Of a DNA stretch of 64,000 bases, positions 896 through 24,534 are shown piece by piece. The notes under the pieces were generated by a model that was given only the letters and a program-made list of their open reading frames with translations, did no database searches and was not told the DNA's origin. The position numbers were made by a program, and so were the translations under genes. The DNA is from Burkholderiales bacterium. GTDB taxonomy: Bacteria > Pseudomonadota > Gammaproteobacteria > Burkholderiales > Burkholderiaceae_C. The stretch covers positions 2,230 through 66,229 of the forward strand of contig CANBZB010000001.1 of assembly GCA_947373745.1 (NCBI GenBank), given 5' to 3'. The first letter of the stretch is position 1; every line of letters starts with the position of its first letter.

Positions 896-1070
896 TTATT
901 GCAAATCGGGGATTGAAACGACGATTTGCAAATTTTAGGCGAGAACCATGTATTTCTGCAAGCGTGCGGAGTCAATATGGCTGGCACTGCTCTTGCTTAA
1001 CCCTATGCAAACCTGCCATGAAATCCTTCATTGGCGGGAACTTTTTGACACTTTTAGCAGGAGCTTTGCT

Positions 1071-1689: not shown

Positions 1690-1706
1690 TTGGCACGCGT
1701 TGTGCT
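1690..1706 (+). promoter_or_regulatory. sigma-54 (-24/-12) promoter of the flagellin gene
   Basis: TTGGCACGCGTTGTGCT: TGGCAC with GG-N10-GC spacing, ~47 bp before the flagellin ATG. Confidence 0.75.
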
Positions 1707-1752
1707 TAACCAGTGGTAAGTTTATTCGACCTAGTTAGGTCAGGAGAAAAAA

Positions 1753-4700
1753 ATGGCAGTTATTAATACCAACGTCAAAGCATTGTTTTCACAGATGGCT
1801 TTAAACACATCTGGCCGTGCACAAACTGTTGCCATGCAACAGTTGTCTACGGGCAAGCGTATCAACTCGGCTAGAGATGATGCAGCCGGCATGGCAATCG
1901 CAACACGCATGACCCACCAAATTCGCAGCTTGAACCAAGCCGTGCGCAATGCGGGTGATGCGATCTCCTTGATCCAAACCGCTGAGGGTGCGACCAACGA
2001 AATCACAGACATGATGCAACGCATGCGTGAATTGGCTATCCAAGCAGTCAACGACACCAACGATCCACAACAACGTGGTTACTTGGATTTGGAATTCCAA
2101 CAACTCAAACAGCAAATTGTCCAAATTGCCGACAACACGGAGTGGAACGGGTTCCCTGTGTTGAACGGTAAAGCTGGTGAGCAAGTAGGTGAGATGCCTG
2201 TTTACAAGGCCACATCTAATAACCAGTATGGCGACGTATTGTTGAGCCCAACTACTACTCGAGTGATCGAGGGCACTGCTTCTGGTGAGCAGCAAACCAT
2301 TACTTTTGATACAACGGCTATTCCTGCAACTGCTTCAACCATAGAGACTGCGGCAGTAACTTTCCCAACAACAAGTTTGGCTGCAGGAGATTCGATCACT
2401 GTAGCTGGGTTAACTTTCACAGCGACTGCTGCAGTAACAAAATCTCAAATGGGCGATGCTTTCGCTTCACTCGCGAATGGTGCAACTACCGGAGCAAGCA
2501 CTTTAGGTACATACAGTGGAACATTCTCTGGATATACCTCAGGTACCAATACGGCAGGTGTCGTAACTTTCACCAGTGTGGCCCGTGGAAATGTGACCAA
2601 TATTGCATTGAGTGGTTCAGTAACCGCTCCTACTGCAGCCGTTACAGCAGGTGTTTCAGCCACTGGAGGATTTACCGGCACGCGAACATTTAATTTCGCT
2701 GGCGAAACGATCAATTTGCAGTGGGATGCCATTAAGAAGACAGATGAGTCAGGCGTGGATTCTGCGAAGCTGTTGGCTCAAATCAAACAGCAATTGGAAT
2801 CTACAGATAAGTTTGGTACGGGTTCAGGTCGCTCAGTCGCTATCAGCGGAACGAGCTTAGTTTTGACATATGCTGCCAAAGACCAAGATGTCGCAGCTGC
2901 TCAATTAGTAGATGCATCGAACGACGGATTTTTCAAGGTCGGTACGGTTGCTGTAAGTCGCAATGCCATTACGCAAACGGATGAAAACTTTGACAACAAC
3001 GGACGTTTCCTGCGTAGCGGAAACTTGGTTATTGAGCATACCGACACGAATAATGACGGTAGCTTGGATATCAAGGCTGTGTTTACTACCCCTGATAACA
3101 AGAGCGTCAATTTGACGGGTACTTTTGACAGCACCAAAGGCACTGTCAAATTTTTGAAACAAGACGGCATCAACAGTACGGTTATCTCAGACAACCTTAC
3201 TTATGTCATGAAAGACCCTAATGGATCTCCCTTGGATGGAGTTGCATTGGAAAAAAATCTGAATTTACGTAACTTCAAATTGTCAGTTGACGTATCAGGC
3301 AGCATACCTGCGATGCGTGCTGGAGATTTGTTGATTAACGGCGTCGAAATTGGCGGATCTTTTGCAACAGACGATCCTTATTCACCCATCAACAACGCCA
3401 ATGGTTCTGCTATTGCTAAAGCTGCGGCGATCAATCGCAAGGCTTCTGAAGGCAGCGGTCCTGTTGGTGAGTCGCAAGCCATTACCTTCTCGGGTACGCC
3501 TATCCCAGGTGTGATTACCGTGGGTGGTGTCAGCGTTGAACTCACAGCGATGGAAAACACGCCAGCTTTGGCCGTCGCAAAAATTGCAGAAACGATGCGC
3601 AACAGCGCCCAGTTTGGTCAGGGTTCCGGCCGTACGGTTAATTACGCCCCTGGAAGCACCATCATTGGTGTGGACTTTCCCGTCACGGATGGCCAAGTCA
3701 GTGCGATCGACGTGCAGCAACGCGATACCAATTTAGCCAGCGTGACCGATACAACGCGCCAATACAGCTCATCCTCTGCAGGAACTGGCGTATTTGCCAA
3801 GGTGAATGAGAACATCTTCACCGGTAAAGCTATGAGTGGCAATTCTGTTGTCTCAGGCGTTGTATTTATCAACGGTTATGCGTCAGCAAAAATTGAGACC
3901 TTGATGAACAACCCGCGTGATACCCGCGCCAATGTTGTGCGAGCTATCAACCTCATCAGTGACAAAACTGGCGTTGTTGCCGAAGACACAGGTTCAGACC
4001 AATTAGGCGTGACCTTGAAAGCGGCTGACGGCCGTAATATTGAAATTACTTTTGAAACAACCGCTATTGCAAGCGACTTCGGTAACCGAATTGGTATGCG
4101 CGAAGGTGTACAAAGTTCAACCATCTCTTTGGAATCGAAAATTCCAAACGCAGTTGTACTGTCAAGCTCTGCGGTCGGTGACATTTCTCGCGTAGGCTTA
4201 CTCGAAGGAAACTACAGTAAAAATCAAGCAGTGGTCAATTCGAAGGAACGTCCTTTGGTTGATCCATCTGTTAAACAAGTCAGTAGCGCAGCGTTTACTG
4301 GCCCAGCGTTAGTGGGTGATAAATTCACGCTTGTCGTAAACGGCACTGAACACAGCATTACTGCAACAGCTGGACAAACAACACAATCGTTACGCGACGC
4401 AATGGTGACCAAGTTTGCAGCTGACAACGATCAAAACGTCGAAGTTTTGGCAGGTAATACAGTGGGCGAATTCGTCATCCGTGCCAAAACACCAGGACGC
4501 TCTTTCACGGCTGCTACGGCCATGGTGCCCACCACTGGTTCAACTGCAACGGTTTCTTCTGTGAAGACGGTTGTTGCAAATCAGATTGCCCAATTCAAAG
4601 CCTTAGGTGCGGATGACTTAGAAATCAATGGAATAAAAATCCGTGCTACCAATAATGCAGACGATATTTACTCTAACCAAATTGCAAGCAGCAGCAATCC

Positions 4701-6216: not shown

Positions 6217-6244
6217 TTAACTACTGGAAAGTAACGGCTAACCC

Positions 6245-6577
6245 ATGAAAGCCGCCCAAGGCCAAACGCCTCTAGCAGCAGACCATGCAGCGGGTCCCAC
6301 AAAGGGTCCCAACTGCTGGGACTGTCGCCATATGGCGATTACGTGGGACGTTCGAACTCCTTACAGCTGCAAATTGATGGGGTTTCGTTCGCGCAATATT
6401 CCCTCCATCGAGGTTTTACGCAATGACGGGCGCTTTTGTAGTGGTTTCACTGCCAAACCTGCGCCAACCGCTGCAAATACTCCCAAGCCCAAGCCAACTT
6501 TGGCTGTCGGCAAGACGACAAACCGTCGAAATACTGACCCTAGCACCCCTTTTCCGCAGATTAACTTAATCATTTAG
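6245..6577 (+). CDS. Small four-cysteine hypothetical protein (CxxC...C...C)
   Basis: CWDCRHMAITWD...PYSC...GFRS...PS.EV...G..C..F followed by a Pro/Lys/Thr tail; 28 bp after the flagellin stop. Confidence 0.7.
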   Translation: MKAAQGQTPLAADHAAGPTKGPNCWDCRHMAITWDVRTPYSCKLMGFRSRNIPSIEVLRNDGRFCSGFTAKPAPTAANTPKPKPTLAVGKTTNRRNTDPSTPFPQINLII

Positions 6578-6590
6578 GTTTCAATCGGTG

Positions 6591-6607
6591 CTGGCACGCA
6601 CTTTGCA
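6591..6607 (+). promoter_or_regulatory. sigma-54 (-24/-12) promoter of the activator-fliEFGHIJ operon
   Basis: CTGGCACGCACTTTGCA is a near-perfect match to TGGCACG-N4-TTGCW. Confidence 0.88.
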
Positions 6608-6642
6608 TAACAGTCTTACCTTAATTTCTAGGCTGTTCAAAA

Positions 6643-8097
6643 GTGATTGCTTCTTCTGTCAACGTTATTCATGCCGTGTGGTTGGACCCATTTAGTCCGA
6701 TCGACGACGCAGATCGCGCCCAGCTAGATGCCGCCGGCATCAGCTTGGAAACTGTTCGTACCCTTGGTGAGCTCACGCTGGCATTGCGCCGCGCGCACAT
6801 GTTGGTCATTCGCTTAGGCGATAGCGCCGAGTTGTTGCAAGAGGTCCAAACGCTCATCGGCCAACTCGGTAACACCGTGCCTGTGCTGTGCCGCGTAGAC
6901 CGCCGCCGTATGGAAGTCGCTGTTGACGCCATGCGTTTAGGTGCATTGCATGTGTTGCCTGCCGACGAATGGACGCCCGCTATTTGGCAAGAAGCGGTGC
7001 AAGGTTTGAATTCCCCAGAACTCACTACTAAGAGCTATGTGTTCGTAGACCCAACTAGCCAACACTTGCTGGCATTGGCACAACGCGTCGCGCAAACTGA
7101 AGTCACCGCTTTATTAGTTGGCCCAACCGGCGCTGGTAAAGAAGTCTTAGCCCGTGTGTTGCACGAATCATCTCCACGCGCCAAAGGCCCGTTTGTAGCC
7201 TTGAACTGCGCAGCGATGCCAGAGCATTTGATCGAAGACATGTTGTTCGGTCACGAGAAAGGCGCTTTTACTGGCGCTTTGAAAGAACACAAAGGTTTGT
7301 TTGAACAAGCCGAAGGTGGCACGATTTTCTTGGACGAGATTGGTGAGATGCCAATGAACTTGCAAGCCAAGTTATTGCGCGTCTTGCAAGAGAAAAAACT
7401 CAACCGTTTAGGCGGTGAGGCATTGATCGACCTGAACGTGCGTGTCATCGCTGCCACCAACAAAGATTTAAAACTGGCGATCGAGCAACGCGAATTCCGT
7501 GAAGACTTGTATTTCCGTATCAGCACATTCCGCTTACGTATTCAGCCTTTGAAAGACCGTCCAGGCGACATCATGCCTTTGGTCATTCAATCGTTGTCAC
7601 GCCACATCAAAGGGGGCTTGCCTTTCACGGTGTCACCCGAAGCCCAAGCCATGTTGGCGAGCTACCCGTGGCCCGGCAATGTGCGTGAATTAGAAAACGT
7701 GGTGCAACGCGCCGTCGTGTTGTGTGGTGGCCGTGTGGTCACTCCAGCACACGTGATGTTTGACGATGCGGGTTTAGACGACCAAGCAGGTTACGCCAGC
7801 CAAATGGAAAACCTCGCGCAAACGATGCCTGCCGTCTCATATGCGCAGCCAACGTATACACAACCCACTTACGCGCAACCCGCGTCAAGTGCACCGATTG
7901 AAATTCGCCCGACTGAAACCCCTGTGAACTTAGAGCACGCCGTGATGGTGAGCGAACAACAGGTGATCATGGCTGCGATCCAAAGTACCGACAGCCGCAT
8001 GGAAGCGGCTGCCAAGTTGGGTATCAGCCCACGCACATTGCGCTACAAGCTCGCACAACTGCGTAGCCGTGGCATGACAGAAGGAGTCGCCGCATGA
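6643..8097 (+). CDS. sigma-54-dependent flagellar activator (FleR/FlrC/FleT/LafK position) with degenerate receiver domain
   Basis: GPTGAGKE Walker A, HEKGAFTGA, FLDEIGEM Walker B, REDLYFR, WPGNVRELEN, C-terminal HTH AAAKLGISPRTLRYKL; directly upstream of fliE. Confidence 0.92.
   Translation: MIASSVNVIHAVWLDPFSPIDDADRAQLDAAGISLETVRTLGELTLALRRAHMLVIRLGDSAELLQEVQTLIGQLGNTVPVLCRVDRRRMEVAVDAMRLGALHVLPADEWTPAIWQEAVQGLNSPELTTKSYVFVDPTSQHLLALAQRVAQTEVTALLVGPTGAGKEVLARVLHESSPRAKGPFVALNCAAMPEHLIEDMLFGHEKGAFTGALKEHKGLFEQAEGGTIFLDEIGEMPMNLQAKLLRVLQEKKLNRLGGEALIDLNVRVIAATNKDLKLAIEQREFREDLYFRISTFRLRIQPLKDRPGDIMPLVIQSLSRHIKGGLPFTVSPEAQAMLASYPWPGNVRELENVVQRAVVLCGGRVVTPAHVMFDDAGLDDQAGYASQMENLAQTMPAVSYAQPTYTQPTYAQPASSAPIEIRPTETPVNLEHAVMVSEQQVIMAAIQSTDSRMEAAAKLGISPRTLRYKLAQLRSRGMTEGVAA
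7840..7881 (+). repeat. 15-bp tandem repeat encoding YAQPT-YTQPT-YAQP linker
   Basis: tatgcgcagccaacg / tatacacaacccact / tacgcgcaaccc between the AAA+ and HTH domains. Confidence 0.65.
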
Positions 8098-8435
8098 TCG
8101 ATCGAATTTCTAATGCCAACGTCCAGTCCATGCTGGAGGTTTTGCGCAGTTACCAATCCCAAGCGACGGGTGGTGCAGGTTCAACCACTGAACCAGCGGC
8201 TACCAAAGTAGGCCAACCCACGTTTTTTGACTCCGTTAAAAACGCACTCGACAAAGTCAACGACACAGACAACAAAGCTGGCGCGTTGTCGGAAGCCTAT
8301 GACCGCGGCGAAGAAGTGCCCCTCACCGAAGTGGTGTTGAGCATGCAAAAAGCTTCTCTGGCTTTTGAAGCCACCCTCCAAGTACGCAACAAAGTGATGA
8401 AGGCGTACGAGGAAATCATGAACATGCCGGTTTGA
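8094..8435 (+). CDS. fliE: Flagellar hook-basal body protein FliE
   Basis: EVVLSMQKASLAFEATLQVRNKVMKAYEEIMNMPV signature. Confidence 0.96.
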   Translation: MIDRISNANVQSMLEVLRSYQSQATGGAGSTTEPAATKVGQPTFFDSVKNALDKVNDTDNKAGALSEAYDRGEEVPLTEVVLSMQKASLAFEATLQVRNKVMKAYEEIMNMPV

Positions 8436-8455
8436 TGTTGGACTGAAAGACAGAT

Positions 8456-10546: not shown

Positions 10547-10576
10547 CACCGAATAATTTAAGTTTAGGACTACACC

Positions 10577-11611
10577 ATGGCTGATATCAATATGGGAATG
10601 ACGGAGGCACTACGTGCTGAGATGGCCAACATTACCTCTACCCAACGTGCGGCAGTTTTGATGTTGCTCTTGGGCGAAGAACAAGCGGCTGACATCATTA
10701 AATTTTTGAATCCCAAAGAAGTACAAGCTTTGGGCGCTGCGATGGTGGCTGCGGCAGACTTTTCGCAAGAAGCTGTCAACGTGGTGTTGGACGAATTTGT
10801 AGACCACTTGAAGAAGCAATCTTCTTTGAGTATGGGTAGTACCGACTATGTAGAAAACGTGATGCGCCGCGCTTTAGGCGACGACAAAGCAGCGTCTGTG
10901 TTGAACCGCATCATGCCAGGACAAGCTAGCAAAGGCTTAGAAATTTTGACGTGGATGGATGCCCGTGGCATTGCAGACATGATCAAGGCGGAACATCCAC
11001 AAGTGGTCGCCATCATCTTGTCATTATTAGAGGCCACCGTGGCAGCAGATGTTTTGAATTTTCTACCGCCCGAATCACGCGCAGAAGTGATCCAGCGTGT
11101 CGCTAGTTTAGACACCGTGCAACCTTCGGCCATGGCTGAACTAGAAGGCATCATGAAGATGCAGTTCTCTAAGAGCGCATCGTCACAGTCTTCAAGCTTT
11201 GGCGGCGTAGAAGCTGCTGCCAAGATCATGAACTTGACCAAGACCGCTTTGGAGTCCAGCATCATGAATGGTTTGAACGAGATCGACCCAGAGTTGATGC
11301 TCAAGATTCAAGACAATATGTTCACCTTCGAGAGCTTGGTAGGTGTGAACAACAAAGGTATTCAGGTACTCATGCGCACTGTTGAGCCTGACATGCTGAT
11401 GGTGGCTCTTAAAGGTGCAAGCCCAGATTGCCAAGCCCGCTTTTTTGACAACATGTCTGAACGCGCGCGTGGCATGTTCCGTGACGATATGGAAGCCAAA
11501 GGCCCACAACGCATGTCAGATGTGGAAGAAGCACAAAAGAAGATCATGCGTATGGCCAGACAGTTGTCTGACTCTGGTGAATTGGTGCTAGGTGGCGGCG
11601 ACTATGTATAA
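10577..11611 (+). CDS. fliG: Flagellar motor switch protein FliG
   Basis: QRAAVLMLLLGEEQAA, EHPQVVAIIL, MFTFESL, NMSERA...DDME...SDVEEAQKKI. Confidence 0.97.
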   Translation: MADINMGMTEALRAEMANITSTQRAAVLMLLLGEEQAADIIKFLNPKEVQALGAAMVAAADFSQEAVNVVLDEFVDHLKKQSSLSMGSTDYVENVMRRALGDDKAASVLNRIMPGQASKGLEILTWMDARGIADMIKAEHPQVVAIILSLLEATVAADVLNFLPPESRAEVIQRVASLDTVQPSAMAELEGIMKMQFSKSASSQSSSFGGVEAAAKIMNLTKTALESSIMNGLNEIDPELMLKIQDNMFTFESLVGVNNKGIQVLMRTVEPDMLMVALKGASPDCQARFFDNMSERARGMFRDDMEAKGPQRMSDVEEAQKKIMRMARQLSDSGELVLGGGDYV

Positions 11612-13040: not shown

Positions 13041-13674
13041 CGTCATCAATACTTTATTGATGGGTTTGATTTTCATGGTCATTGTGGTGACCGTGGTACG
13101 CCCGTTTGTGCTGCACATCGTCAACGGTTCAATGTCCACGGAAGACTTGCAAAAAGAAGCGATTGAAACCGTTCAGCAAGAAATGATGCGTGTCAGTATT
13201 TTGGCTGAAGCGCAGCGCAACGAACAAATTCGCTTTCAGCAATTGCTCTTAGAAGTTCCAGAAAAACCAAAACCCAAACCAGTCCCTGAAATCGATCTGG
13301 AGGCGGAAGAAGCCAAGGCCAAAGAAGAAGCAGAGGCGCACGCACAAGCGCTGGCCGATGCGGCAGCCGCTGAAGCGCAAGCAGCAGAGGCAGTTGAAGA
13401 ATCTGCGGCTGAAGGCGAGGAATCCATCGCAGAAGGCGAAGCGGTAGAAGAAACAGCAAGCACCGAAATTGTGATGCAAGAAGGTGAGTCATTGGCTGAT
13501 GTGAAGGCGCGTATGAAGCGCGAACAAGCCAAAGCCAAGAAACCCACGATTCCGCCAGAGTTACTGAACAACGCCAACAGCTACGAAGACAAAGTAGGCG
13601 TGGTGCGCATGGTGGTGCAAAATGACCAAAGCCGCGTGGCCAGCGTGATCCGCAGCATGATCCAAACGCAATAA
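13027..13674 (+). CDS. Stand-alone paralogue of the FliF C-terminal region (TM + FliG-binding tail), 'mini-FliF'
   Basis: G.IF.....VVRP.V TM motif and the last ~62 aa align to this locus's own FliF; GGAGAGG RBS; ATG overlaps the end of fliH. Confidence 0.88.
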   Translation: MFIPDVINTLLMGLIFMVIVVTVVRPFVLHIVNGSMSTEDLQKEAIETVQQEMMRVSILAEAQRNEQIRFQQLLLEVPEKPKPKPVPEIDLEAEEAKAKEEAEAHAQALADAAAAEAQAAEAVEESAAEGEESIAEGEAVEETASTEIVMQEGESLADVKARMKREQAKAKKPTIPPELLNNANSYEDKVGVVRMVVQNDQSRVASVIRSMIQTQ

Positions 13675-13692
13675 CCAACCTATCACTTTCCC

Positions 13693-15012
13693 ATGCTTGA
13701 TTTCGCACAAGAAGTAGAGACCACGCTAGAGCAATTGCGCGTGCCAGATCCGCAACGTAGCGGCACCTTGGTGCGCTTAGTAGGTTTGACATTAGAGACC
13801 CGCGGCATCATGGCACCTTTGGGTGCGTGTTGCGAAGTGATAGGTCAACATGGCCATCGCATTGAGGCCGAGGTAGTCGGATTCAATGACCGCACTTTGT
13901 ATTTGATGCCGTTCACAGACCCTGTGGGCGTAGGTCCTGGCGACATGGTGCGCGTGATGCGCAACTCAGGCCAAGTCCGTTTGGGTGATGGCTTATTAGG
14001 CCGAGTGATTGATGGCCGTGGACAACCTTTAGATGGTCGTCCTTTGCCTGAATTACCAGACCAAATGACATTGTTTGGAAGTCCGCTCAATCCTATGGAG
14101 CGTGGCCCGATCAAATCAATTTTGGATGTAGGCGTGAAGGCCATCAACTCTGTATTAACAGTGGGTCAAGGCCAACGCATTGGTTTAGTCGCTGGCTCTG
14201 GTGTGGGTAAAAGTATTTTGCTCGGCATGTTGACCCGCTTTACCAAAGCCGACATCGTGGTGATCGGTTTGATTGGTGAGCGTGGCCGCGAAGTGCAAGC
14301 ATTTATCAGTGAATCGTTGGGAGACGAAGGTTTGGCGAAGTCTGTGGTGATTGCCGCACCTGCGAACGTTTCTCCTGTCTTGCGACTCAAAGCCACGCAC
14401 ATGACCCATGTGGTCGCAGAATATTTTCGTGACAAAGGCTTGAACGTGTTGATGCTGTGCGACAGCTTAACGCGTGTGGCCCACGCACAGCGTGAAATTG
14501 GTTTGGCGATTGGCGAACCGCCTACTGCCAAAGGTTATCCCCCATCTGTGTTTGCCTTGTTACCCAATTTGATTGAACGCGGTGGCGTTGGTAGACATGG
14601 CCACGGCTCGATCACTTCGATCTACACCGTGCTCGCCGAAGGTGATGACGCATCCGACCCCATCGTGGACATTGCCCGCGCATCTTTAGACGGACAAGTG
14701 ATGTTGTCGCGTACCCTAGCCGATCAAGCGCATTACCCCGCGATTGATTTGAATGGTTCAATTTCACGTGTGATGCAAACCTTGGTCGATAGCGAGTCAT
14801 TGCGCCAAGCCAATCGGTTTAGACGTTTATGGTCTGTCTACCAACAAAACGCCGACTTGGTACAAGTGGGTGCTTATGAAGCCGGAACCAATCCTGAGTT
14901 GGATGAAGCGATTCGCTTGCGCGAACAAATGGTGATGTTCTTGCGCCAAGACATGCACATCAGCGAAGACTACGACGTCTCCTTGAGTAACCTCAAACAC
15001 TTGATGTCATGA
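13693..15012 (+). CDS. fliI: Flagellum-specific export ATPase FliI
   Basis: AGSGVGKS Walker A, IGERGREV, DSLTRVAHAQREIGLAIGEPPTAKGYPPSV, HYPAIDL. Confidence 0.97.
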   Translation: MLDFAQEVETTLEQLRVPDPQRSGTLVRLVGLTLETRGIMAPLGACCEVIGQHGHRIEAEVVGFNDRTLYLMPFTDPVGVGPGDMVRVMRNSGQVRLGDGLLGRVIDGRGQPLDGRPLPELPDQMTLFGSPLNPMERGPIKSILDVGVKAINSVLTVGQGQRIGLVAGSGVGKSILLGMLTRFTKADIVVIGLIGERGREVQAFISESLGDEGLAKSVVIAAPANVSPVLRLKATHMTHVVAEYFRDKGLNVLMLCDSLTRVAHAQREIGLAIGEPPTAKGYPPSVFALLPNLIERGGVGRHGHGSITSIYTVLAEGDDASDPIVDIARASLDGQVMLSRTLADQAHYPAIDLNGSISRVMQTLVDSESLRQANRFRRLWSVYQQNADLVQVGAYEAGTNPELDEAIRLREQMVMFLRQDMHISEDYDVSLSNLKHLMS

Positions 15013-15446
15013 AACCCCGCGCAGCATGGCCCATCTTGGCAAAAAAAGCCAAAGAAAAGTGCGACCACGCCATGGCTGCTTTGGTCAAGGGTCGCGAAAA
15101 AATCAAAAACCTTGAACAAAGTCGCAACCGGATGGAAGCGCTTTATGCAGACTATCTGGCACGATCGATTGAAGCCGAAAAAAACTCGCTCAGCATGCAA
15201 GAGACGGTGAACTTTCGTGGATTCTTGCAACAAATACAAACTTTGATTAAACGTGTCGATGTTGACCTCCAACACGCTAAATTTGAGTTGGATGTTCTAA
15301 AAGGTAATTTGCTAGCAGCAGAGAAAAAACGCATCCAAATGGACACCTTGCAAGAGCAAGATGAGCGGCGAGTGAGAGTTGCCGCGGCTAAGCGGGAACA
15401 ACGCGCTATGGATGCTGCGGGTGTGATGCTTTTTAATATGAAGTGA
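15009..15446 (+). CDS. fliJ: Flagellar export protein FliJ
   Basis: 145-aa coiled coil after fliI with NFRGFLQQIQ and KREQRAMD; 4-bp overlap. Confidence 0.85.
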   Translation: MKPRAAWPILAKKAKEKCDHAMAALVKGREKIKNLEQSRNRMEALYADYLARSIEAEKNSLSMQETVNFRGFLQQIQTLIKRVDVDLQHAKFELDVLKGNLLAAEKKRIQMDTLQEQDERRVRVAAAKREQRAMDAAGVMLFNMK

Positions 15447-15499
15447 CCAATGCAGGGTCCTATCTAGCGCTTTACGCTGGTATGGGAACCGTTTGGGTT

Positions 15500-16252
15500 T
15501 TATCTTGGTGTTTGCCATCCCGCTTGCAACCAATGCCAATAGTGGGGTTTGAATTCCCAAGGAATGAGGGTGGTGGGCGTGTCGTCCGCAAATACGTGTG
15601 AAGTCAGGTGGTCAAACCACACGCCTTGGGCTTGCAAGCTTTGCACCAAGGTTTGGCTGTAAGTTGCTTCCATATCTTTGGGATACGCGTTTTGCCGAAC
15701 GTTTTGTATGCGTGAATCTAGTGAATGTGTCTCTAGGGTGGGACCCGACAGCAAATCATGGACGCTGCCCCAATCACGTCCTTGCAGAGTGGTTTTGAGT
15801 CCGCGCAGTTCTTTTTCTACCCGCACTTCATCGCGGATGCGGTAGCGGTGTTGCCCCAATATATTGTCAAACCAGATACTGGCTTGTGGATGTTGTGCCA
15901 GTATTTCAGGCAGATGAACTATTGCATCTAGTCGATAGTGGGTGATTTGCGTGTGACTTTTGCGCAGAGCAGCGCCATGTCGCCAATTAAATAGGTGCTG
16001 GGCTAGTGGGTCAATGTCATAAGCGGCAATGTGCGTGAATTGCGTGAGCCATTCGGTGGGCATCATCCAACCCGCACTGCAACCCATCAAAAGCAAATGC
16101 GCATGACGCGGCTGGCAACGTAATAAAAAGTTTTCAATATGTGTAACGGTGGGATGCCAACGCTTGTGGGATCGGAAGGCATGCATATGCCAGTTCAGTC
16201 CACCAGTGCCACCTGCATCTACCAAGTCTTTGAATATTTCGCGCATTCCCAT
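15500..16252 (-). CDS. Hypothetical protein, SAM-dependent methyltransferase-like fold
   Basis: LLLMGCSAGW resembles motif I and IAAYDIDP motif II; family not certain. Confidence 0.55.
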   Translation of the reverse strand: MGMREIFKDLVDAGGTGGLNWHMHAFRSHKRWHPTVTHIENFLLRCQPRHAHLLLMGCSAGWMMPTEWLTQFTHIAAYDIDPLAQHLFNWRHGAALRKSHTQITHYRLDAIVHLPEILAQHPQASIWFDNILGQHRYRIRDEVRVEKELRGLKTTLQGRDWGSVHDLLSGPTLETHSLDSRIQNVRQNAYPKDMEATYSQTLVQSLQAQGVWFDHLTSHVFADDTPTTLIPWEFKPHYWHWLQAGWQTPR

Positions 16253-16301
16253 AACTTGGAACTATATCTGTGCAAATTCCGCGCGCGGGTGCCAATTTGA
16301 C

Positions 16302-16318
16302 CTGGCATATTGATTGCA
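16302..16318 (+). promoter_or_regulatory. sigma-54 (-24/-12) promoter of fliOPQR-flhB
   Basis: CTGGCATATTGATTGCA: TGGCAT-N5-TTGCA, ~62 bp before the fliO ATG. Confidence 0.8.
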
Positions 16319-16380
16319 AAGTCTATGGAAGCAGGCACTTTAGGTGTCAATAAACCGTCATTGCGCACAGGAAATTCATC

Positions 16381-16653
16381 ATGCAAAGCTTCAATTGGGC
16401 CCAGTTCATCGCTAGTACGTTCAGTATCTTGCTGCTACTAGGCGTGGCATGGTGGTGGGTCAAGCGCAATAAAACCATGGGACTGCAAGGCAACGGCGAG
16501 CGCCGAATCCAGTTGGTAGAAGCACTTCCTTTGAGTCTGAAGCACAAGATGGTGTTGATCCAAATCGACAACCAAATGGTGTTGGCAAGTGTCAGCCCCA
16601 GCGAAGTCAAAACTCTGCACGCTTGGACCGAGGAGACATCGCATGTTGCGTAA
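16381..16653 (+). CDS. fliO: Flagellar biosynthesis protein FliO
   Basis: Single TM then IQLVEALPLSLKHKMVLIQIDNQMVLASVSPSEVKTLH; precedes fliP. Confidence 0.85.
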   Translation: MQSFNWAQFIASTFSILLLLGVAWWWVKRNKTMGLQGNGERRIQLVEALPLSLKHKMVLIQIDNQMVLASVSPSEVKTLHAWTEETSHVA

Positions 16654-17410
16654 ACAAGTTTCCTTCAAACTTACCTTCGTCTTGATGGCGTTGTTATTGA
16701 TTGCCATGTGTGTGATGCCGATGATGGCGCAAGCGCAAGGCATACCACTGGTCAATGTCAGTGGTGGCAAAGGCGGCCAACAATACAGCATGAGCCTGCA
16801 ATTGCTGGGCTTGATGACAACGCTCACGCTGTTGCCATCGATGTTGCTGATGATGACCTCGTTTGTACGCATCATCATCGTGCTATCTATCCTGCGCCAA
16901 GCTTTAGGTACCGCGCAAACACCGCCCAATACTGTCTTAGTAGGACTGGCTTTGTTTTTGACCTTCTTCATCATGTCGCCCGTCTTCGAGTCGGTCTACA
17001 AAGACGCAGTGGGCCCCTATATGAATGCCAATTTGGACTTTGACAAAGCATTGATCAAAGCGGAAGCACCTGTTCGTGATTTCATGATGAAGCAAACCCG
17101 CGAAGACGATATTGCGATGTTCATGCAAATCGCCAATCGTCGTGAGTTAGACAACTCTTCACAAGTGCCTTTCACTACGCTGATGCCTGCGTTCATCACG
17201 TCGGAGATCAAGAGCGCTTTCACGATTGGTTTCTTGATCTACATCCCTTTTGTGGTGATTGACTTGATCGTCGCCAGTGTATTGATGTCGATGGGCATGA
17301 TGATGCTCTCGCCCATGATTATTTCGATGCCAATCAAACTCATGTTGTTTGTGTTGATCGACGGGTGGACGCTCTTGATGGCGTCGCTGTCGAATAGTTT
17401 TGTTTTTTAA
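16643..17410 (+). CDS. fliP: Flagellar export pore protein FliP
   Basis: MTSFVRIIIVLSILRQALGTAQTPPN, LMPAFITSEIKSAF, IDLIVASVLMSMGMMMLSP; start chosen at ATG 16643. Confidence 0.97.
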   Translation: MLRKQVSFKLTFVLMALLLIAMCVMPMMAQAQGIPLVNVSGGKGGQQYSMSLQLLGLMTTLTLLPSMLLMMTSFVRIIIVLSILRQALGTAQTPPNTVLVGLALFLTFFIMSPVFESVYKDAVGPYMNANLDFDKALIKAEAPVRDFMMKQTREDDIAMFMQIANRRELDNSSQVPFTTLMPAFITSEIKSAFTIGFLIYIPFVVIDLIVASVLMSMGMMMLSPMIISMPIKLMLFVLIDGWTLLMASLSNSFVF

Positions 17411-17422
17411 GGAAGAAGCACC

Positions 17423-17692
17423 ATGGATTCAGCAGCTGTAGTAGATTTAGCGCGTCAAGCGCTCTGGATGACCATGCTCATCTCAGCTCCCTTGCTTTTG
17501 GTCGGCTTAGTTGTGGGTTTGGTAGTGGGTATTTTCCAAGCCGCCACCTCCATCAACGAGCAAACGCTTAGTTTTATTCCTAAAGTGTTTGCAATTGGCT
17601 TGACCATTTCCATCATGGGAGGCTGGATGATCAACACCATGGTCGACTACACCAAGTCCATCTTCACACGCATTCCTAGTTTGTTCATGTAA
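17423..17692 (+). CDS. fliQ: Flagellar export protein FliQ
   Basis: GIFQAATSINEQTLSFIPK signature. Confidence 0.97.
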   Translation: MDSAAVVDLARQALWMTMLISAPLLLVGLVVGLVVGIFQAATSINEQTLSFIPKVFAIGLTISIMGGWMINTMVDYTKSIFTRIPSLFM

Positions 17693-17701
17693 TTTTGAGC
17701 T

Positions 17702-18469
17702 ATGAATCTAGCGCTCATCGACATTCTTGAAAAGTTTTTGGTCATTGTTTGGCCGATGCTGCGCTTGTCTGCATTTTTAGCGTTCACCTCCATTTTTTCT
17801 ATCCGTGCAGTGAATCTTCGCATTCGGATGTGTCTGGGTTTTGCTTTGGCATTTTTTGTGTCGCAACAAATTGATATTCCGCGTATCGATCCACTGACTG
17901 CAGAAGGTTTGTTGGAGATATTTCGCCAAATTTTGATTGGTCTGACCATGGGTTTGGTGTTTCAAGTCGCATCTGCCACCTTGGTAGTGGCTGGTCAGGC
18001 GGTATCGGGCTCTATGGGTTTGTCGATGGCTAACATGATTGACCCTAACATGGGTAGCGTGCCTGTGTTGTCTTCACTTTTCAACATCATGGGCACCTTG
18101 ATTTTCTTAGGTATTGGTGGGCATTTGATTGTGTTTGGCTTGGTGTTGGAATCATTTAAGTTGCTACCAATTGGGCAAGAGTTTTTCTCCCAAGATATGT
18201 TGGGCAAGATGATCAACTGGAGTGCCATGATGTTCTTAGGCGCTTTATTGATTGGTTTGCCTGTGATGATGACTTTGCTTTTCATCAACATTGGCCTTGG
18301 ATTTGTAGCCCGTGCCGCACCAAGTTTGAATATTTTTACCGTTGGCTTTCCCGCCTTGATCTTGGTGGGATTTGTCATTTTGATCTTCTCAATGGGCAAC
18401 AACGTCTCGCGCATCCAATGGGTGTGGGCGCAGGCGTTTTTAGTGTTGCGATCATTTTTAGGAAGTTGA
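17702..18469 (+). CDS. fliR: Flagellar export protein FliR
   Basis: Polytopic; AGQAVSGSMGLSMANMIDP, ARAAPSLNIFTVGFP. Confidence 0.96.
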   Translation: MNLALIDILEKFLVIVWPMLRLSAFLAFTSIFSIRAVNLRIRMCLGFALAFFVSQQIDIPRIDPLTAEGLLEIFRQILIGLTMGLVFQVASATLVVAGQAVSGSMGLSMANMIDPNMGSVPVLSSLFNIMGTLIFLGIGGHLIVFGLVLESFKLLPIGQEFFSQDMLGKMINWSAMMFLGALLIGLPVMMTLLFINIGLGFVARAAPSLNIFTVGFPALILVGFVILIFSMGNNVSRIQWVWAQAFLVLRSFLGS

Positions 18470-18482
18470 TTAGGTAGCTGAT

Positions 18483-19631
18483 ATGGCAGAAGAAAGCGGC
18501 CAAGACAAAACCGAAGAACCCACGGCGCAACGATTAAGCAAAGCGCGCGAGGAAGGTCAAATTGCGCGTTCGCAAGAACTCGCGCCTGCAGCCATGATGG
18601 TGATGGCTACTTTATTTTTCACCATGATGGGGCAATACATATTCAACAGCATGGGCAATTTGTTCAAAAGCCAGTTGCAGTTTGATAGAAAAATCACCGA
18701 CAAAGCTGAGTTGCTCCCTGCAATTTTTGGCAGTGCCATCGTCGATGGGTTTGTCATCGTTTTGCCCCTCATTGCCATCATGGCAGTGATTGCCGCGCTG
18801 TCGACCACGTTGGCGGGTGGATTTATCTTTTCGCCCAAACTTGCCCTTCCTAATTTTGGCAAGCTCAATCCTATGAGTGGCTTGAAGCGTATGTTTGGCC
18901 CTGATGCATTTATTCAACTGGGTAAATCGGTCGCTAAGTTTTTAGTAGTTGGCGCCATTTTGTTGGTGTCGGTCATGAACAATTTGAATGACTTGACCAA
19001 TATTTCGCAAATGGATTTAGGCCAAGCAGTAAAAATTGCTGGCACCATCATTGTGGATTCTTGTTTTTGGTTGAGTTTGGGTTTGGTCTTGGTGGCATTG
19101 GTCGATGTGCCATTGCAGCGTCACCAATTGAACAAGAAACTCAAGATGACCAAGCAAGAGGTCAAAGACGAAATGAAGAACTCGGAAGGTAACCCCGAGG
19201 TCAAAGGTCAGATCCGCCGTCGCCAACGCGAAATTTTGAACAACAAGATGATGACCAAAGTCAAAGACGCTGACGTCGTTATCACCAACCCAACCCACTT
19301 TGCGGTGGCCTTGTCGTATGACCCCAATGGGGACGGTGCACCTATCTTGGTGGCTAAGGGCGAAGACGGATTGGCAGCACGTATTCGTGAGGAAGCAAGC
19401 AAGAATGGGGTCTATCTCTTTGAAGCACCGCTGCTAGCCCGCGCCTTATACTTCACGACTAAGTTGGATCACCCCATCCCAGAGGCGCTATACCATGCTG
19501 TGGCTCAGGTGATTGCCTTTGTGTTTAGTCTGAATCAGTCTTACGGAAGAGGCCAAGAAGTGATCAAGCCGGACCCGAAAATTCCTGACGAGATGAAATT
19601 TGATGCCAACGGTGTCTTGATGAACTCTTAA
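18483..19631 (+). CDS. flhB: Flagellar export gate protein FlhB
   Basis: DKTEEPT, KMTKQEVKDEMKNSEGNPEVK, VITNPTHFAVAL autocleavage motif. Confidence 0.97.
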   Translation: MAEESGQDKTEEPTAQRLSKAREEGQIARSQELAPAAMMVMATLFFTMMGQYIFNSMGNLFKSQLQFDRKITDKAELLPAIFGSAIVDGFVIVLPLIAIMAVIAALSTTLAGGFIFSPKLALPNFGKLNPMSGLKRMFGPDAFIQLGKSVAKFLVVGAILLVSVMNNLNDLTNISQMDLGQAVKIAGTIIVDSCFWLSLGLVLVALVDVPLQRHQLNKKLKMTKQEVKDEMKNSEGNPEVKGQIRRRQREILNNKMMTKVKDADVVITNPTHFAVALSYDPNGDGAPILVAKGEDGLAARIREEASKNGVYLFEAPLLARALYFTTKLDHPIPEALYHAVAQVIAFVFSLNQSYGRGQEVIKPDPKIPDEMKFDANGVLMNS

Positions 19632-19648
19632 TCTCCAATTAAGCCCGC

Positions 19649-21175
19649 ATGACCGATATCTTCCAAAGCCCAGGTGACCGATTACGGTTGGAAATCCTTT
19701 TGAAATCGTTGACCGAAGGCAGCATCAATTTGGCTGTCCTGAGCCAACATGATTTGATCCTGGATTTTTACGGCAACCTATTTGAAGAACGCTTGCGTGC
19801 TGCGGGTGAACAAAACATCGAGTTTTGTACCTCCACCAGCTCTGAGCAGTTGGTGCAAACCTTTAACGACATCTTGTCGGAACTCACGCTCAACCAAGCC
19901 ACAGAAAAAGAAAAAAAGTTAGCGCCACGCCGCTTCTTGGTATTTCGCGACTCCATATTGATGCAAGAGTTTGAGTTGCAACTGCTTGCAAGACTGGTCA
20001 ATGGATTTCCAGCTGGCAATATCAGCGTGATTTTGCTCATCAACAGCGCCGGCAACTACCGTAAAAAGTTAGAAGCATTTGGTAAAAACCTATTGCAATG
20101 GGAAGTAGAAACCAAAGCGGGTGAACCCAAACGTGTTTTGTCCGATTGGGTGGCTGATACACCTGATCCAGCCCCTCCATCCGAGCCACCTGTTTTGCAA
20201 CCGATGTCGGCTGAAGACTCGGAGGAAGCGCTCAAGCAACTCAATATGCCCAAGAAAACGTCTTGGCGTATTCCTGGGTTGGGCAAAAAAGCCCAGCCTC
20301 AGCCAGCCCCTGCTTCCTCAGCTGCTGCAATGCCAGCTCCGGCACCTGCATCTTCAACACCTTTCAAGCTGCCAGAAGCGGCACCCGTTGCGGCTTTTGA
20401 TGCGCAAACGCCGCGTGAGCCAATATTAGGTGCGCCAGTTCTCGGTGTGCCTGCCAGCGCCACAGTCGCTTCATCTGCACAAGCAGCAGAAGCAGATGTT
20501 TTCAAACGCGGCACAAGCAAACCACGCTGGGGTATTGTTTTATTTGTGTTGCTGATGTCTTTAGTAGTCTTTGGCTTTATGTACAAAGACATGTTGCTGG
20601 AAGAAGCCGAGCTCTTCAAGAAATATTTATTACGCGGAACTCCTGCTGCACCTGCACCCGGACCAGTAGCCAGTGCACCAGAGCCTGCTGCATCTGGCGC
20701 GGCACCAGTTGCAAGCGACGTGGCTTCCGATGCTGTTGATATGCAGGCAACGCCAGCGAGTGGCAGCATGGTTGCTGTACCTGTAGCTTCCGAGCCTCTT
20801 GTAGTTGCACCTATTAAAGAGACAGAGAAAAAAGAACCCTCTAAAAAAGAAGCTCAAACTAATACGCCTCAAGCCGATAAAGTATCGGATACAGATTGGG
20901 TAAGCCAATTGCCAGATGACGGATTCGTCTTGCAACTTGCTGCATTTGATGTGGAAGAAGAAATGCTCACCTTTAAACGCAGCCAGGCAGCGTATGCCTC
21001 TGCTCGGGTGATGCAGGTAAGAAAAAAAGATACAAACAAACGCTACTTCATTTTGTTGGCTGGCCCGTTTGAGACCAAGCCAGAGGCTGATCGATTTATG
21101 AAATCAAGCCCCTTGCTTGCAAAAGGATGGTTACGCAGCGTGAAGTCTGTCAAAGCACAACTGACCAAGGCCTAA
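19649..21175 (+). CDS. SPOR-domain membrane protein with degenerate N-terminal ATPase-like domain (DamX-like architecture)
   Basis: TM WGIVLFVLLMSLVVFGFM, Pro/Ala linkers, C-terminal FVLQLAAF...YFILLAGPFETKPEA...WLRSVKSV typical of SPOR. Confidence 0.75.
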   Translation: MTDIFQSPGDRLRLEILLKSLTEGSINLAVLSQHDLILDFYGNLFEERLRAAGEQNIEFCTSTSSEQLVQTFNDILSELTLNQATEKEKKLAPRRFLVFRDSILMQEFELQLLARLVNGFPAGNISVILLINSAGNYRKKLEAFGKNLLQWEVETKAGEPKRVLSDWVADTPDPAPPSEPPVLQPMSAEDSEEALKQLNMPKKTSWRIPGLGKKAQPQPAPASSAAAMPAPAPASSTPFKLPEAAPVAAFDAQTPREPILGAPVLGVPASATVASSAQAAEADVFKRGTSKPRWGIVLFVLLMSLVVFGFMYKDMLLEEAELFKKYLLRGTPAAPAPGPVASAPEPAASGAAPVASDVASDAVDMQATPASGSMVAVPVASEPLVVAPIKETEKKEPSKKEAQTNTPQADKVSDTDWVSQLPDDGFVLQLAAFDVEEEMLTFKRSQAAYASARVMQVRKKDTNKRYFILLAGPFETKPEADRFMKSSPLLAKGWLRSVKSVKAQLTKA

Positions 21176-21192
21176 GAGAGATAAGGATCGAC

Positions 21193-21618
21193 ATGAGTAG
21201 TACAGAAGCCGACGTTATCTCCAACAAAGGTCACGAGACCTTCGAGCCTGCTTTTGAATCAGACAAGGTGCCACGCATCCAGGTGCCCAATCTGCCTGAG
21301 GATGCGCAAGGTCTTTCCGCAAGGGAATTGGCCCAAGTCCCCACCTTGCATGAACCAGAGGCTGCACACATGCCTGAAGCGGTGAAGGTAGCTGTTCCTA
21401 CTGTCGATTCCTTAGCAACAGGCGCGGATGCACCGAGCCCTTCAGTCTTAGACGAGTTAGACGCATTGCCCATATTGGACGAAGTTCATGCTCAAGAGAT
21501 GCCTGTCCACGTCGATACATGGATAGAGGTGCTCCATAAGCGCACCGAAAAGCTAACCGAAGACATCAGGCAGCTGCATGAGCGGCTTGATGTTTTAGAA
21601 GAACAATCAAAGGGTTGA
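21193..21618 (+). CDS. Acidic hypothetical protein with C-terminal coiled coil
   Basis: ORF 21127..21618; ATG 21193 after an AAGGA RBS; IEVLHKRTEKLTEDIRQLHERLDVLEE heptads. Confidence 0.65.
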   Translation: MSSTEADVISNKGHETFEPAFESDKVPRIQVPNLPEDAQGLSARELAQVPTLHEPEAAHMPEAVKVAVPTVDSLATGADAPSPSVLDELDALPILDEVHAQEMPVHVDTWIEVLHKRTEKLTEDIRQLHERLDVLEEQSKG

Positions 21619-21620
21619 CC

Positions 21621-22886
21621 ATGGCGGAAGCGGAAAAAAACACGGAAGACACAGCGGTGCTCGAAGCGCCGGTGGATGAAGTCGAAACGACGGACGCTGT
21701 GGAGTCAGGTGAAAACACGTCTGAAGGCGATGCAGAGACTATCTTGGACGTAGATGCAACCGCTGACCGCTTGACAGATATCGCCAGCCAGTCTTTAGAC
21801 AGCAATGAGGTAGCCCGTCAGATTGAAGAATTAACTTCGGTGGTTTTAGATTCAGCCGAGGTGTCAACACGTTCCGCGTCTATTGCTGCCGATGTGAGCA
21901 GCGCCATGCGCATGGTGGTGGCAAAAATCGAAGAAACCAACCGCCGCAATGTTTTGCATTCCCGCATCATCCTCGGAGCTGTTTGCGTTAGTTTGTTGGT
22001 CGCGATGGGCTTTTTCTTTGGCATCACTTTAAAAATGACCAAGTCGATTAAAGAATTGGATGTGATGACGTATGCCATGTCTAAGCGCATGATCGAGATT
22101 GACGGAAGCATCAGTGCGATTGGTAAAACGAATTCTGATTTCTCTGAAATTACAGACAAGCAAGAAGAACTCAACACCACGCAGAAAAATGTCGCCAACC
22201 GTTTAGACGAAATTGGCCGCGTGATGTCTGGTATGCCTAACTTGGTCGCCGATCAAAACAACAAACTGATTGACGCCAAATTGCTCGCCATGAATAAATC
22301 TTTGGCTTCTATGGAAGCCAAGATTGCTGCCAACATGGACGCTGACAAATTGAAGCAGCAACCTGTGCAATTGGTGTTGACTGAAATTCAAAAATTACGT
22401 ACCGACACCAACCAAAGCTTGCAAAGCATGCGTTCTGAGATGAACCAAAGCTTGCAAACGCGGGACAAATTACAGGCTTCTGCCTATGAAGAAGCTGTGA
22501 AACGTGCTAGCAATGCTGCTGCTGCTGCACAAAAAGCAGCTGATAGTGCAGTCGCGGCTGAGAAGGCAACGGCAGCAGAGCGTCTGAATGCTCAAAAGGC
22601 GGCTGCTGAGAAAGCGGCTGCTATGCGCTTTGCACCGGCTGAAAAGCCACCAGAGCGAACCCAAGCCGATAAAGCAGCGGCTGACAAAGTTGCTGCGGAA
22701 AGAGCCGCAGTAAGAGTAGCTGCTGAAAAAGCCGCAGCCTTGGCAGCTGAGCGTGCTGCGGCAGCTGAGCGTGCCGCAGAGAAATCCCGTGCAGCTGCAG
22801 CCCAAGCTGCCGCGGCGCCACCGGCACCTCCGCCAGCACCTGTTGTGCGCGAGCGTCCTATTCAGTATCCAAGAGCGGCTGACTAA
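21621..22886 (+). CDS. Single-pass membrane coiled-coil protein with TolA-like Ala/Lys/Glu tail
   Basis: TM IILGAVCVSLLVAMGFFFGITL, long heptad region, AEKAAA repeats; start TTG 21615 or ATG 21621. Confidence 0.75.
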   Translation: MAEAEKNTEDTAVLEAPVDEVETTDAVESGENTSEGDAETILDVDATADRLTDIASQSLDSNEVARQIEELTSVVLDSAEVSTRSASIAADVSSAMRMVVAKIEETNRRNVLHSRIILGAVCVSLLVAMGFFFGITLKMTKSIKELDVMTYAMSKRMIEIDGSISAIGKTNSDFSEITDKQEELNTTQKNVANRLDEIGRVMSGMPNLVADQNNKLIDAKLLAMNKSLASMEAKIAANMDADKLKQQPVQLVLTEIQKLRTDTNQSLQSMRSEMNQSLQTRDKLQASAYEEAVKRASNAAAAAQKAADSAVAAEKATAAERLNAQKAAAEKAAAMRFAPAEKPPERTQADKAAADKVAAERAAVRVAAEKAAALAAERAAAAERAAEKSRAAAAQAAAAPPAPPPAPVVRERPIQYPRAAD

Positions 22887-24505: not shown

Positions 24506-24534
24506 GCAGCTAACTCCTTTGGCGGTGGGAAAGA

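Follow-up and report, generated by a model that had tools for sequence, protein, structure and literature searches.

A distinct, lineage-restricted form of the polar sigma-54 flagellum in Limnohabitans, with enlarged axial and basal components and a separate FliF-tail gene

Introduction

What kind of flagellum does a freshwater betaproteobacterium build when its flagellin has 1487 residues, a sigma-54 enhancer-binding protein heads its fliE operon and a second, much shorter FliF-like gene is inserted between fliH and fliI? The question is raised by a 64,000-nt stretch of a Limnohabitans metagenome-assembled genome (MAG; assembly GCA_947373745.1, contig CANBZB010000001.1, positions 2,230 to 66,229), referred to below as the window, in which flagellar genes run on one strand from the flagellin gene fliC to a gene for a 423-residue coiled-coil protein, broken by a single inverted gene for a 250-residue protein. 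An initial annotation of the window, made from its letters alone, had described a non-canonical, sigma-54-driven system with enlarged components, laterally acquired by an apparent Comamonadaceae host and remodelled as a thick-filament, possibly high-torque motor with scaffold proteins of its own. According to the analysis described here, the region probably forms the central portion of a full flagellar system that belongs to a distinct evolutionary type specific to a few lineages. We class it as a separate form of the polar sigma-54 flagellum that is confined to certain lineages, characterized by coordinated enlargement of axial and basal components and by one truly unusual gene, mini-FliF.

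The host belongs to Limnohabitans (Comamonadaceae), a freshwater genus, in agreement with the family named in the initial annotation; its closest named records come from MAGs of Limnohabitans and of Comamonadaceae and from the isolate Limnohabitans sp. Jir61, and a search of the host MAG (2.26 Mb, 199 contigs, 90% complete) for 16S rRNA found none. In fresh waters, Limnohabitans counts among the most abundant members of the bacterioplankton, and protists feed on it as one of their major prey. Within the genus, flagellar genes belong to the core (bioRxiv 10.1101/839407), and this general statement was all that was found in the literature on Limnohabitans flagella and on the flagellar islands of Polynucleobacter.

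Coordinates are positions in the window, and genes lie on the plus strand unless stated otherwise. Genes were called from a listing of open reading frames (ORFs) together with Pfam scans of the window proteins, protein lengths were compared between the host locus and 40 other loci, and a possible donor was sought with FliI in about 1,400 genomes sampled at the family, order, class and phylum level. Genomes (G), contigs (C), loci (L) and families (f) are given by handle where they have to be told apart.

A Separate FliF-Tail Gene between fliH and fliI

The product named mini-FliF in the initial annotation does match the C-terminus of FliF and comprises 215 residues. It is made up of a transmembrane (TM) helix like TM2 of FliF (VVRPF/VVRPM), a conserved helix, a variable acidic and proline-containing linker and a conserved tail of about 60 residues, which is 51% identical to the tail of the host FliF over 59 residues (E 1e-14). 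The tail keeps a two-helix motif that is common to the ends of all FliF types compared and that, in mini-FliF and the FliF of this lineage, takes the form NSY[DE]DK..(L/V)VRM.V..D..RVA..(L/I)+..I; in several genomes the C-terminal third of FliF aligns whole to mini-FliF residues 6-214. The ring-building domains YscJ_FliF and YscJ_FliF_C gave no Pfam match in mini-FliF even at E<=1. The possibility that it is a true FliF, that is, the protein of the MS ring, was rejected, since it is a paralogue of the C-terminal third only and has a TM helix, a linker and a tail but no periplasmic ring domains. These alignments suggest that the 3' third of fliF, encoding TM2, the spacer and the FliG-binding tail, has been duplicated into a separate gene between fliH and fliI.

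Both conserved ends of mini-FliF are under strong purifying selection (dN/dS 0.01-0.09). The gene is present in all 21 examined loci of the Limnohabitans clade that span fliH to fliI and in none of seven such loci from sister lineages. A match to mini-FliF or to the FliF tail was obtained in 85 of 121 species genomes of the genus, including 46 of the 57 of high quality; in three high-quality genomes where FliF alone had seemed to match, a more divergent mini-FliF was found in the same place. A search of species-representative genomes with the 215-residue protein retrieved 18 loci, Jir61 among them, all assigned to Limnohabitans, Comamonadaceae or Burkholderiales. Mini-FliF is confined to Limnohabitans. 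In public data it amounts to 1,313 clusters at 90% identity; at 50% identity there are only about 15 of full length among 1.84 billion protein representatives; among the 120 matches listed, every named one carries a hypothetical or generic automatic label. No description of a FliF-tail paralogue, or of a ring-less membrane-anchored FliG-binding tail, was found in the searchable literature.

The last 40 or so residues of FliF bind the N-terminal domain of FliG (FliG_N) one to one, and complexes of the FliF C-terminal peptide with FliG_N are known at the structural level from Thermotoga and Helicobacter. The two-helix motif that closes every FliF compared also closes mini-FliF, which, unlike the FliF partner in these complexes, is a separate product with one TM helix and no ring domains. 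From this motif we infer that its tail carries the FliG_N-binding determinant. Mini-FliF would then bind the N-domain of FliG at the membrane, where it might offer extra FliG anchoring sites, serve as a FliG chaperone or hold FliG back.

Coordinated Enlargement of Axial and Basal Proteins

The giant flagellin, the lengthened FliF tail and the roughly double-length FliH that the initial annotation had pointed out were all recovered, and enlargement proved to be wider than claimed, since it extends to FlgE and FlgK. Flagellins have about 270-290 residues in the sister genera with this system type, 991 in family f24 and about 1300-1490 in the Limnohabitans clade (about 1330 in the complete genome G119 and 1487 in the host). 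FlgE has 453 residues in an ordinary genome of the family, 799 in a sister genus (G130), 1153 in f24 and 1271 in the Limnohabitans clade, and the size of the host hook is taken from these relatives. The corresponding figures for FlgK are 691, 831 (sister genera), 1076 and 1133-1297, the host protein (C126:1386-4787) having 1133 residues. Both genes were located at G119:C1:441512-449496 (FlgE 1271 and FlgK 1297 residues) and, in f24, at G230:C5:258181-265557 (1153 and 1076 residues). Among the basal proteins, FliF measures 538-639 residues in ordinary Burkholderiales and gammaproteobacteria, about 612 in sister genera, 687-695 in f24 and 675-738 in the Limnohabitans clade (696 in the host), and FliH 215-281, 284-322, 369-461 and 442-530, respectively (482 in the host).

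FliC is the sole flagellin of the host genome, the only other matches being to FlgL. At its D0/D1 ends it matches solved flagellins; the central part, about 1,100 residues long, returned no match (Pfam gave just a sub-threshold Flagellin_IN trace) and no internal repeats in a self-BLAST at E<=1e-3. FliF has an alanine/glutamate-rich spacer of about 110 residues between TM2 and the FliG-binding tail, and the N-terminal extension of FliH is acidic and contains GxxxG-type repeats. In the Limnohabitans branch, the surface-exposed axial proteins FliC, FlgE and FlgK have grown about 2- to 3-fold, FliF has gained a long cytoplasmic spacer and FliH an N-terminal extension.

In Bermanella marisrubri and Oleibacter marinus, giant flagellins form filaments about 30 nm thick, and the survey that described them asked whether other flagellar parts are correspondingly large (Thomson et al., 2018; PMC6248924). 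At the gene level, the answer given by Limnohabitans is yes for FlgE, FlgK, FliF and FliH. As in those two bacteria, a sole flagellin of more than 1000 residues with normal D0/D1 ends is part of a polar-type system. The Limnohabitans case differs in that the host belongs to a betaproteobacterial lineage not named in that survey, in that the flagellin centre has no repeats by self-BLAST and in that FlgE, FlgK, FliF and FliH are enlarged as well. The organelle would be a flagellum of polar position whose hook and filament are thick; the thick filament, the high-torque motor and the scaffold roles proposed in the initial annotation are hypotheses.

Sigma-54 Control without FlhDC

The gene content points to transcription on a sigma-54/sigma-28 scheme without FlhDC. 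FlhC (PF05280) gave no match in the host genome or in any of the seven single-system genomes (G119, G130, G058, G135, G230, G406, G323), whereas it scored about 270 bits in four ordinary genomes of the family and in the E. coli control; the host MAG is 90% complete, but the complete genome G119 also has no FlhC. The system is hence not an ordinary FlhDC-type Comamonadaceae flagellum. RpoN is encoded on contig C99 (RpoN box ARRTVAKYR) and FliA, at 227 bits above its cut-off, on contig C74. The latter contig carries fliS, fliA, flhG, flhF and flhA on one strand and fliK, fliL, fliM and fliN on the other; the flhA-flhF-flhG-fliA block encodes an FHIPEP protein, an SRP54-type GTPase, a MinD/ParA ATPase and FliA, and a perfect sigma-54 element precedes flhA. 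Together with the activator-fliEFGHIJ order, the presence of FlhF, FlhG, FliA and RpoN matches the polar sigma-54 logic of the Vibrio/Pseudomonas type. The premise of the initial annotation that betaproteobacterial flagella are usually FlhDC controlled was too broad, since a sigma-54 activator adjoins fliE in seven of eight sampled loci from other Burkholderiales families; with an activator next to fliE in many of these families, there is nothing exotic about sigma-54 control in itself within the order.

Three sigma-54 promoters had been proposed in the window. Such promoters are present, though the count is four elements (at 982, 1691, 6592 and 16303). Matches resembling the -24/-12 element are not above chance across the window (128 found versus 118 expected from shuffles), and the elements before the activator, fliO and fliC are credited not for the number of matches but because they keep fixed distances in 12-16 divergent loci while the letters of the spacers vary. 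The activator promoter is a 10/10 match at -50 to -54 in 12 other loci (9/10 in L019, and 10/10 at -79 in G130), the fliO promoter a 9-10/10 match at -76 to -78 in 16 loci, and the fliC promoter lies 61-62 nt before the gene, an identical element being found at -61 in G119. No sigma-28 consensus was found upstream of fliC.

The activator heading fliE, as the initial annotation had it, is a sigma-54 enhancer-binding protein. It begins with a degenerate, receiver-like domain followed by an AAA+ domain and a Fis-type helix-turn-helix. No Response_reg match was obtained in it at E<=1; in an alignment to the host NtrC the phospho-accepting aspartate falls in a gap and two further residues are changed (T to R, K to A), and the best partial NCBIfam matches (NifA, FlbD and NtrC) are all below cut-off. 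No histidine kinase gene adjoins the activator, its upstream neighbour being the gene for a 110-residue cysteine-containing protein. The host genome has only three activators, namely the fliE-linked one, an NtrC-like one and one of 383 residues beside motAB, the last with an AAA+ domain and HTH_8 but no N-terminal regulatory domain. Both enhancer-binding proteins of the flagellar system thus appear, from their domains and neighbours, to be kinase-less. The second of them is encoded on contig C148 (176-4602) with motA, motB and an LPP20/FlgP-like lipoprotein that scores 24.1 bits, just under the Pfam cut-off of 25.9; a FlgT-like identity was considered for a 365-residue secreted protein beside the lipoprotein and dropped, as it has no Pfam match. 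Contig C126 carries flgI and flgL in addition to flgK.

Phylogenetic Placement and Distribution

In maximum-likelihood trees of FliI, FliG and the two combined, the system type is recovered as a 100/100 clade whose branch is 1.0-1.25 substitutions per site long, and every other Burkholderiales system falls into a second 100/100 clade, placed among the polar systems of gammaproteobacteria. As the initial annotation had supposed, these core proteins do not branch with ordinary Burkholderiales flagella. FliI is 85% identical within the genus, 71-76% identical in three other genera of the same family (f1), 70-71% in one genus of family f24 (three genomes of 1.6-2.1 Mb) and 71% in one genome of a third family (f16). 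Identity is <=60% in all else sampled, ordinary Burkholderiales included (53-60%). FliI scores up to 508 bits against gammaproteobacterial FliI and up to 447 against that of ordinary members of the family, the attachment point in the tree being unsupported. FliI of the f24 type is restricted, in public data, to contigs from freshwater metagenomes.

Gene order follows the same division. The sister lineages share the order flagellin-orf110-activator-fliEFGHIJ and have homologues of the SPOR protein described below, and ordinary genomes of the family have an enteric-like layout with fliE on the opposite strand from fliF (L027-L030), in contrast to the co-directional fliE behind the activator seen here. 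Within Limnohabitans, tblastn recovered the cluster order and the right flank in about 20 related loci, including the isolate Jir61 and the complete genome G119; every locus of sufficient length keeps the whole order from giant flagellin to coiled-coil gene, followed by the GltB-like neighbour. Since order, flank and presence are conserved across the genomes of the genus, the cluster is a near-core Limnohabitans trait inherited vertically within it. The system type is core to Limnohabitans, and a simpler form of it is shared by a few other freshwater Burkholderiales lineages.

Gene Inventory, Accessory Proteins and Neighboring Genes

The features of the region are listed in Table 1.

Table 1. 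Genes and sigma-54 elements of the flagellar region (aa, amino acids; nt, nucleotides).
Feature	Position	Strand	Evidence or remark
TPR-like protein	948-1541	+	Weak TPR_14 match
Sigma-54 -24/-12 element, TPR-like gene	982-996	+	Perfect match; only this genome examined for the site
Sigma-54 promoter of fliC	1691-1705	+	TGGCACGCGTTGTGC, 62 nt before start
fliC, giant flagellin, 1487 aa	1753-6216	+	Flagellin_N residues 4-140, Flagellin_C residues 1401-1485
orf110, 110 aa, four cysteines	6245-6577	+	No Pfam/NCBIfam match
Sigma-54 promoter, activator-fliEFGH-miniF-fliIJ operon	6592-6606	+	Perfect TGGCAC-N5-TTGC, 51 nt before start
Sigma-54 enhancer-binding protein, 484 aa	6643-8097	+	Sigma54_activat (E 3.9e-67), HTH_8
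fliE	8094-8435	+	Pfam FliE; start overlaps activator stop
fliF, 696 aa	8456-10546	+	Pfam
fliG	10577-11611	+	FliG_N, FliG_M, FliG_C
fliH, 482 aa	11592-13040	+	FliH domain restricted to residues 324-425; Yae1_N repeat match
mini-FliF, 215 aa	13027-13674	+	FliF C-terminus match; 14-nt overlap with fliH stop
fliI	13693-15012	+	Pfam
fliJ	15009-15446	+	Pfam
orf250, 250 aa, divergently transcribed	15500-16252	-	No Pfam match
Sigma-54 promoter, fliOPQR-flhB and three downstream genes	16303-16317	+	78 nt before fliO
fliO, fliP, fliQ, fliR, flhB	16381-19631	+	Pfam
508-aa protein	19649-21175	+	SPOR is the sole Pfam domain
orf163, 163-aa acidic protein	21127-21618	+	No family match
423-aa membrane-anchored coiled-coil protein	21615-22886	+	Translation with Ala/Glu/Lys-rich tail; no family match

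The three genes after flhB had been singled out as novel, and indeed none has a flagellar annotation, a SPOR domain in the first being the only family found. The 508-residue product of that gene is predicted to consist of a cytoplasmic, degenerate AAA+-like domain without a Walker A motif, a TM helix, a proline/alanine linker and a periplasmic SPOR domain; its AF2 model, of moderate confidence (pLDDT about 65-80 in the folded parts), matched Cdc6, ORC and clamp-loader folds in Foldseek (E 6e-4 to 1e-2) as well as the SPOR domains of RlpA and DedD. Homologues occur in every genome with this system type and in no FlhDC-type genome, and the protein could couple the basal body, or the positioning of it, to peptidoglycan at the septum or pole. 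Across the Limnohabitans clade the acidic 163-residue protein is 34-72% and the coiled-coil protein 50-86% identical; Pfam and NCBIfam profile searches detected no family for either of them or for orf110.

orf110 encodes a protein with a CxxC...C...C pattern, always lies between flagellin and activator wherever the system type occurs (tblastn matches in this position in L003-L021, L023, L031 and L032) and may be a regulator. The inverted orf250 is conserved in this system type, G135 included; its AF2 model (pLDDT 70-93 over residues 45-130) has Dot1L and COMT as best Foldseek matches (E 4e-3), which suggests, with low confidence, a Rossmann core weakly resembling class I SAM methyltransferases. 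Homologues of the TPR-like protein occupy the same place upstream of flagellin in G119 (70% identity) and G130 (38%). Its true start is probably M41 at 1068, giving 157 residues, because the perfect sigma-54 element falls inside the longest ORF.

Several observations concern the surroundings of the cluster. The right flank (22883-26060), also present in G119, consists of a gene for a GltB-like FMN-domain protein, a gene for a 176-residue protein and a gene for a 332-residue ParA-like ATPase on the minus strand. At the left edge (2-895) lies a gene for an AAA_14/DUF4143 ATPase with three paralogues (32-36% identity) on contigs C170, C92 and C133 of the same small genome. In Limnohabitans sp. 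EUL_153 (L003:10649-12120) the match to fliI is broken, with residues 1-217 and residues 200-439 on separate pieces and a gap of about 100 nt between them; a frameshift, an insertion or a fault of the assembly could account for it. Contig C20 (1745-5146) encodes a 1133-residue protein composed nearly entirely of short repeats of the type T/S-x-Q-I/L-x-A-L, with a 9/10 sigma-54-like element before the gene and no evident flagellar link.

Comparison with Known Flagellar Systems

The closest regulatory parallel is found in the polar regulons of Pseudomonas and Vibrio (FleQ/FlrA, FleSR/FlrBC, FliA, FlhF, FleN/FlhG), with which the system shares the activator-fliEFGHIJ order, RpoN-type promoters, the flhA-flhF-flhG-fliA block and the lack of FlhDC; the flagellin gene flaA of V. 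cholerae, for instance, has an RpoN-type promoter. The gammaproteobacterial loci compared (L043-L050) have the same activator-fliEFGHIJ order, except for L048, in which no fliE was detected. Unlike the FleSR/FlrBC arrangement, no kinase lies beside the activator and its receiver domain is degenerate. General Pfam scans revealed no FleQ-domain protein among the three host activators (no dedicated PF06490 search of the genome was made and the MAG is incomplete). Further differences are that FliI is just 53-58% identical and on a long branch of its own, that fliOPQR-flhB directly follow fliJ with the inverted gene between, and that orf110, mini-FliF, the SPOR protein and other genes are additional.

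In Rhodobacter sphaeroides, the Fla1 system, which is regarded as laterally acquired, has two kinase-less sigma-54 activators, FleQ and FleT, one of them first in the fliEFGHIJ operon, and FleT has no DNA-binding domain. Compared by description, the Limnohabitans system likewise has two kinase-less activators, one heading fliEFGHIJ, but both of its flagellar activators carry HTH_8. Campylobacter and Helicobacter have FlgE proteins of about 700-860 residues. Their motors resemble the present one in the enlarged hook protein, in the sigma-54-driven hook, rod and flagellin genes and, with regard to the FlgP basal disk, in the lipoprotein beside motAB, whose score is below the Pfam cut-off; FlgE is larger here, about 1150-1270 residues, and there is no FlgRS kinase pair. 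From FlhDC-type systems, enteric or of ordinary Comamonadaceae, the system differs in having no FlhC, in the co-directional fliE and in core proteins that fall outside the ordinary clade (100/100).

Weighing the Alternatives

With regard to origin, the lateral acquisition proposed in the initial annotation is plausible but was not demonstrated, since no donor with FliI identity above 60% was seen outside the clade in the genomes sampled, and the deep placement is weak: a single Burkholderiales clade was rejected marginally at best by the AU test (p 0.157 for FliI, 0.0455 for FliI+FliG). These results would fit an ordinary Burkholderiales flagellum, inherited vertically, whose evolution in a few streamlined freshwater lineages was very fast and which lost FlhDC and retained or elaborated sigma-54 control, without any transfer. 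That account also agrees with the activators adjoining fliE in other Burkholderiales families, with the flank conserved within the genus and with a cluster GC content of 48-52%, the same as in the remaining window, which led to the rejection of a genomic island inferred from composition. It is nonetheless unlikely, because this type is left out of a 100/100 clade made up of the ordinary Burkholderiales systems, those of its own family included, because orf110, the SPOR protein and orf250 travel with the system, and because the type occurs in three families (f1, f16 and f24) and yet in just four of 150 sampled genera of its own family, while one genome (G317) carries both flagellar types. The patchy spread over three families and the double equipment of G317 favor a mobile or anciently paralogous module. 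The distinct type would descend from an ancient lateral transfer or else from an ancient paralogue.

The reading of the region as part of a distinct flagellar type has further points to face in addition to the marginal rejection of Burkholderiales monophyly. The long branch may distort placement. The hook size of the host comes from relatives, because the 90%-complete MAG has no flgE contig. The mini-FliF tail has L or M at the tryptophan conserved in other FliF proteins, and sequence searches of solved structures with the mini-FliF profile and the FliF tail found no FliF-FliG match, for which reasons FliG binding is deduced from position and motif. CheW is absent from the host genome and from a complete genome of the genus, and all Limnohabitans cultures are reported to be non-motile (bioRxiv 10.1101/839407). 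The replaced tryptophan would suit a mini-FliF whose tail binds not FliG but another partner, the FliH-FliI export ATPase complex or FlhA, as a membrane tether of the export apparatus, and so would its translational coupling to fliH, its position directly before fliI and the extension of FliH in the same lineage; this is rather improbable, however, given that the tail keeps the two-helix motif of the lineage's own FliF, itself without the tryptophan, and that the C-terminal thirds of FliF align with it end to end. The lack of motility in culture and of CheW, together with the huge surface domains without known fold or family, could likewise indicate an apparatus not mainly used for swimming, either a silent relic or one repurposed as a thick adhesive or protective appendage or as a secretion device. 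The host (G000), the complete genome G119, G058, G230 and G323 have no CheW-domain gene and hence a flagellar system without a chemotaxis pathway, but related genomes with the same system type (G130, G135 and G406) do carry CheW; FliM begins with the motif LSDEELAAL, resembling the CheY-binding peptide. The structural genes found, among them motA, motB, fliG, fliM and fliN, are all intact, the promoters are conserved, purifying selection is strong and core proteins are 80-98% identical between species, which makes a relic or a repurposed device quite doubtful and leaves a distinct flagellar type, specific to a few lineages, as the likely reading.

Implications for Limnohabitans and for Flagellar Biology

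A bolder proposal is that Limnohabitans has a structurally new class of flagellum, with thickening of the whole external axis (hook, junction and filament), a ring-less membrane protein with a FliG-binding tail as a part or a controller of the rotor, and no chemotaxis pathway. We consider this a long shot; if it were true, a second FliG-tail protein would change the ratio of FliF to FliG or act as a clutch or a reservoir. In this respect, mini-FliF amounts to an experiment of nature on the joint between FliF and FliG, by which the assembly and stoichiometry of the rotor are set. For the genus, the system means that bacteria whose cultures are called non-motile nevertheless keep an intact flagellar system under selection, and its patchy spread among unrelated freshwater Burkholderiales bears on how whole flagellar systems move or persist in streamlined planktonic genomes.

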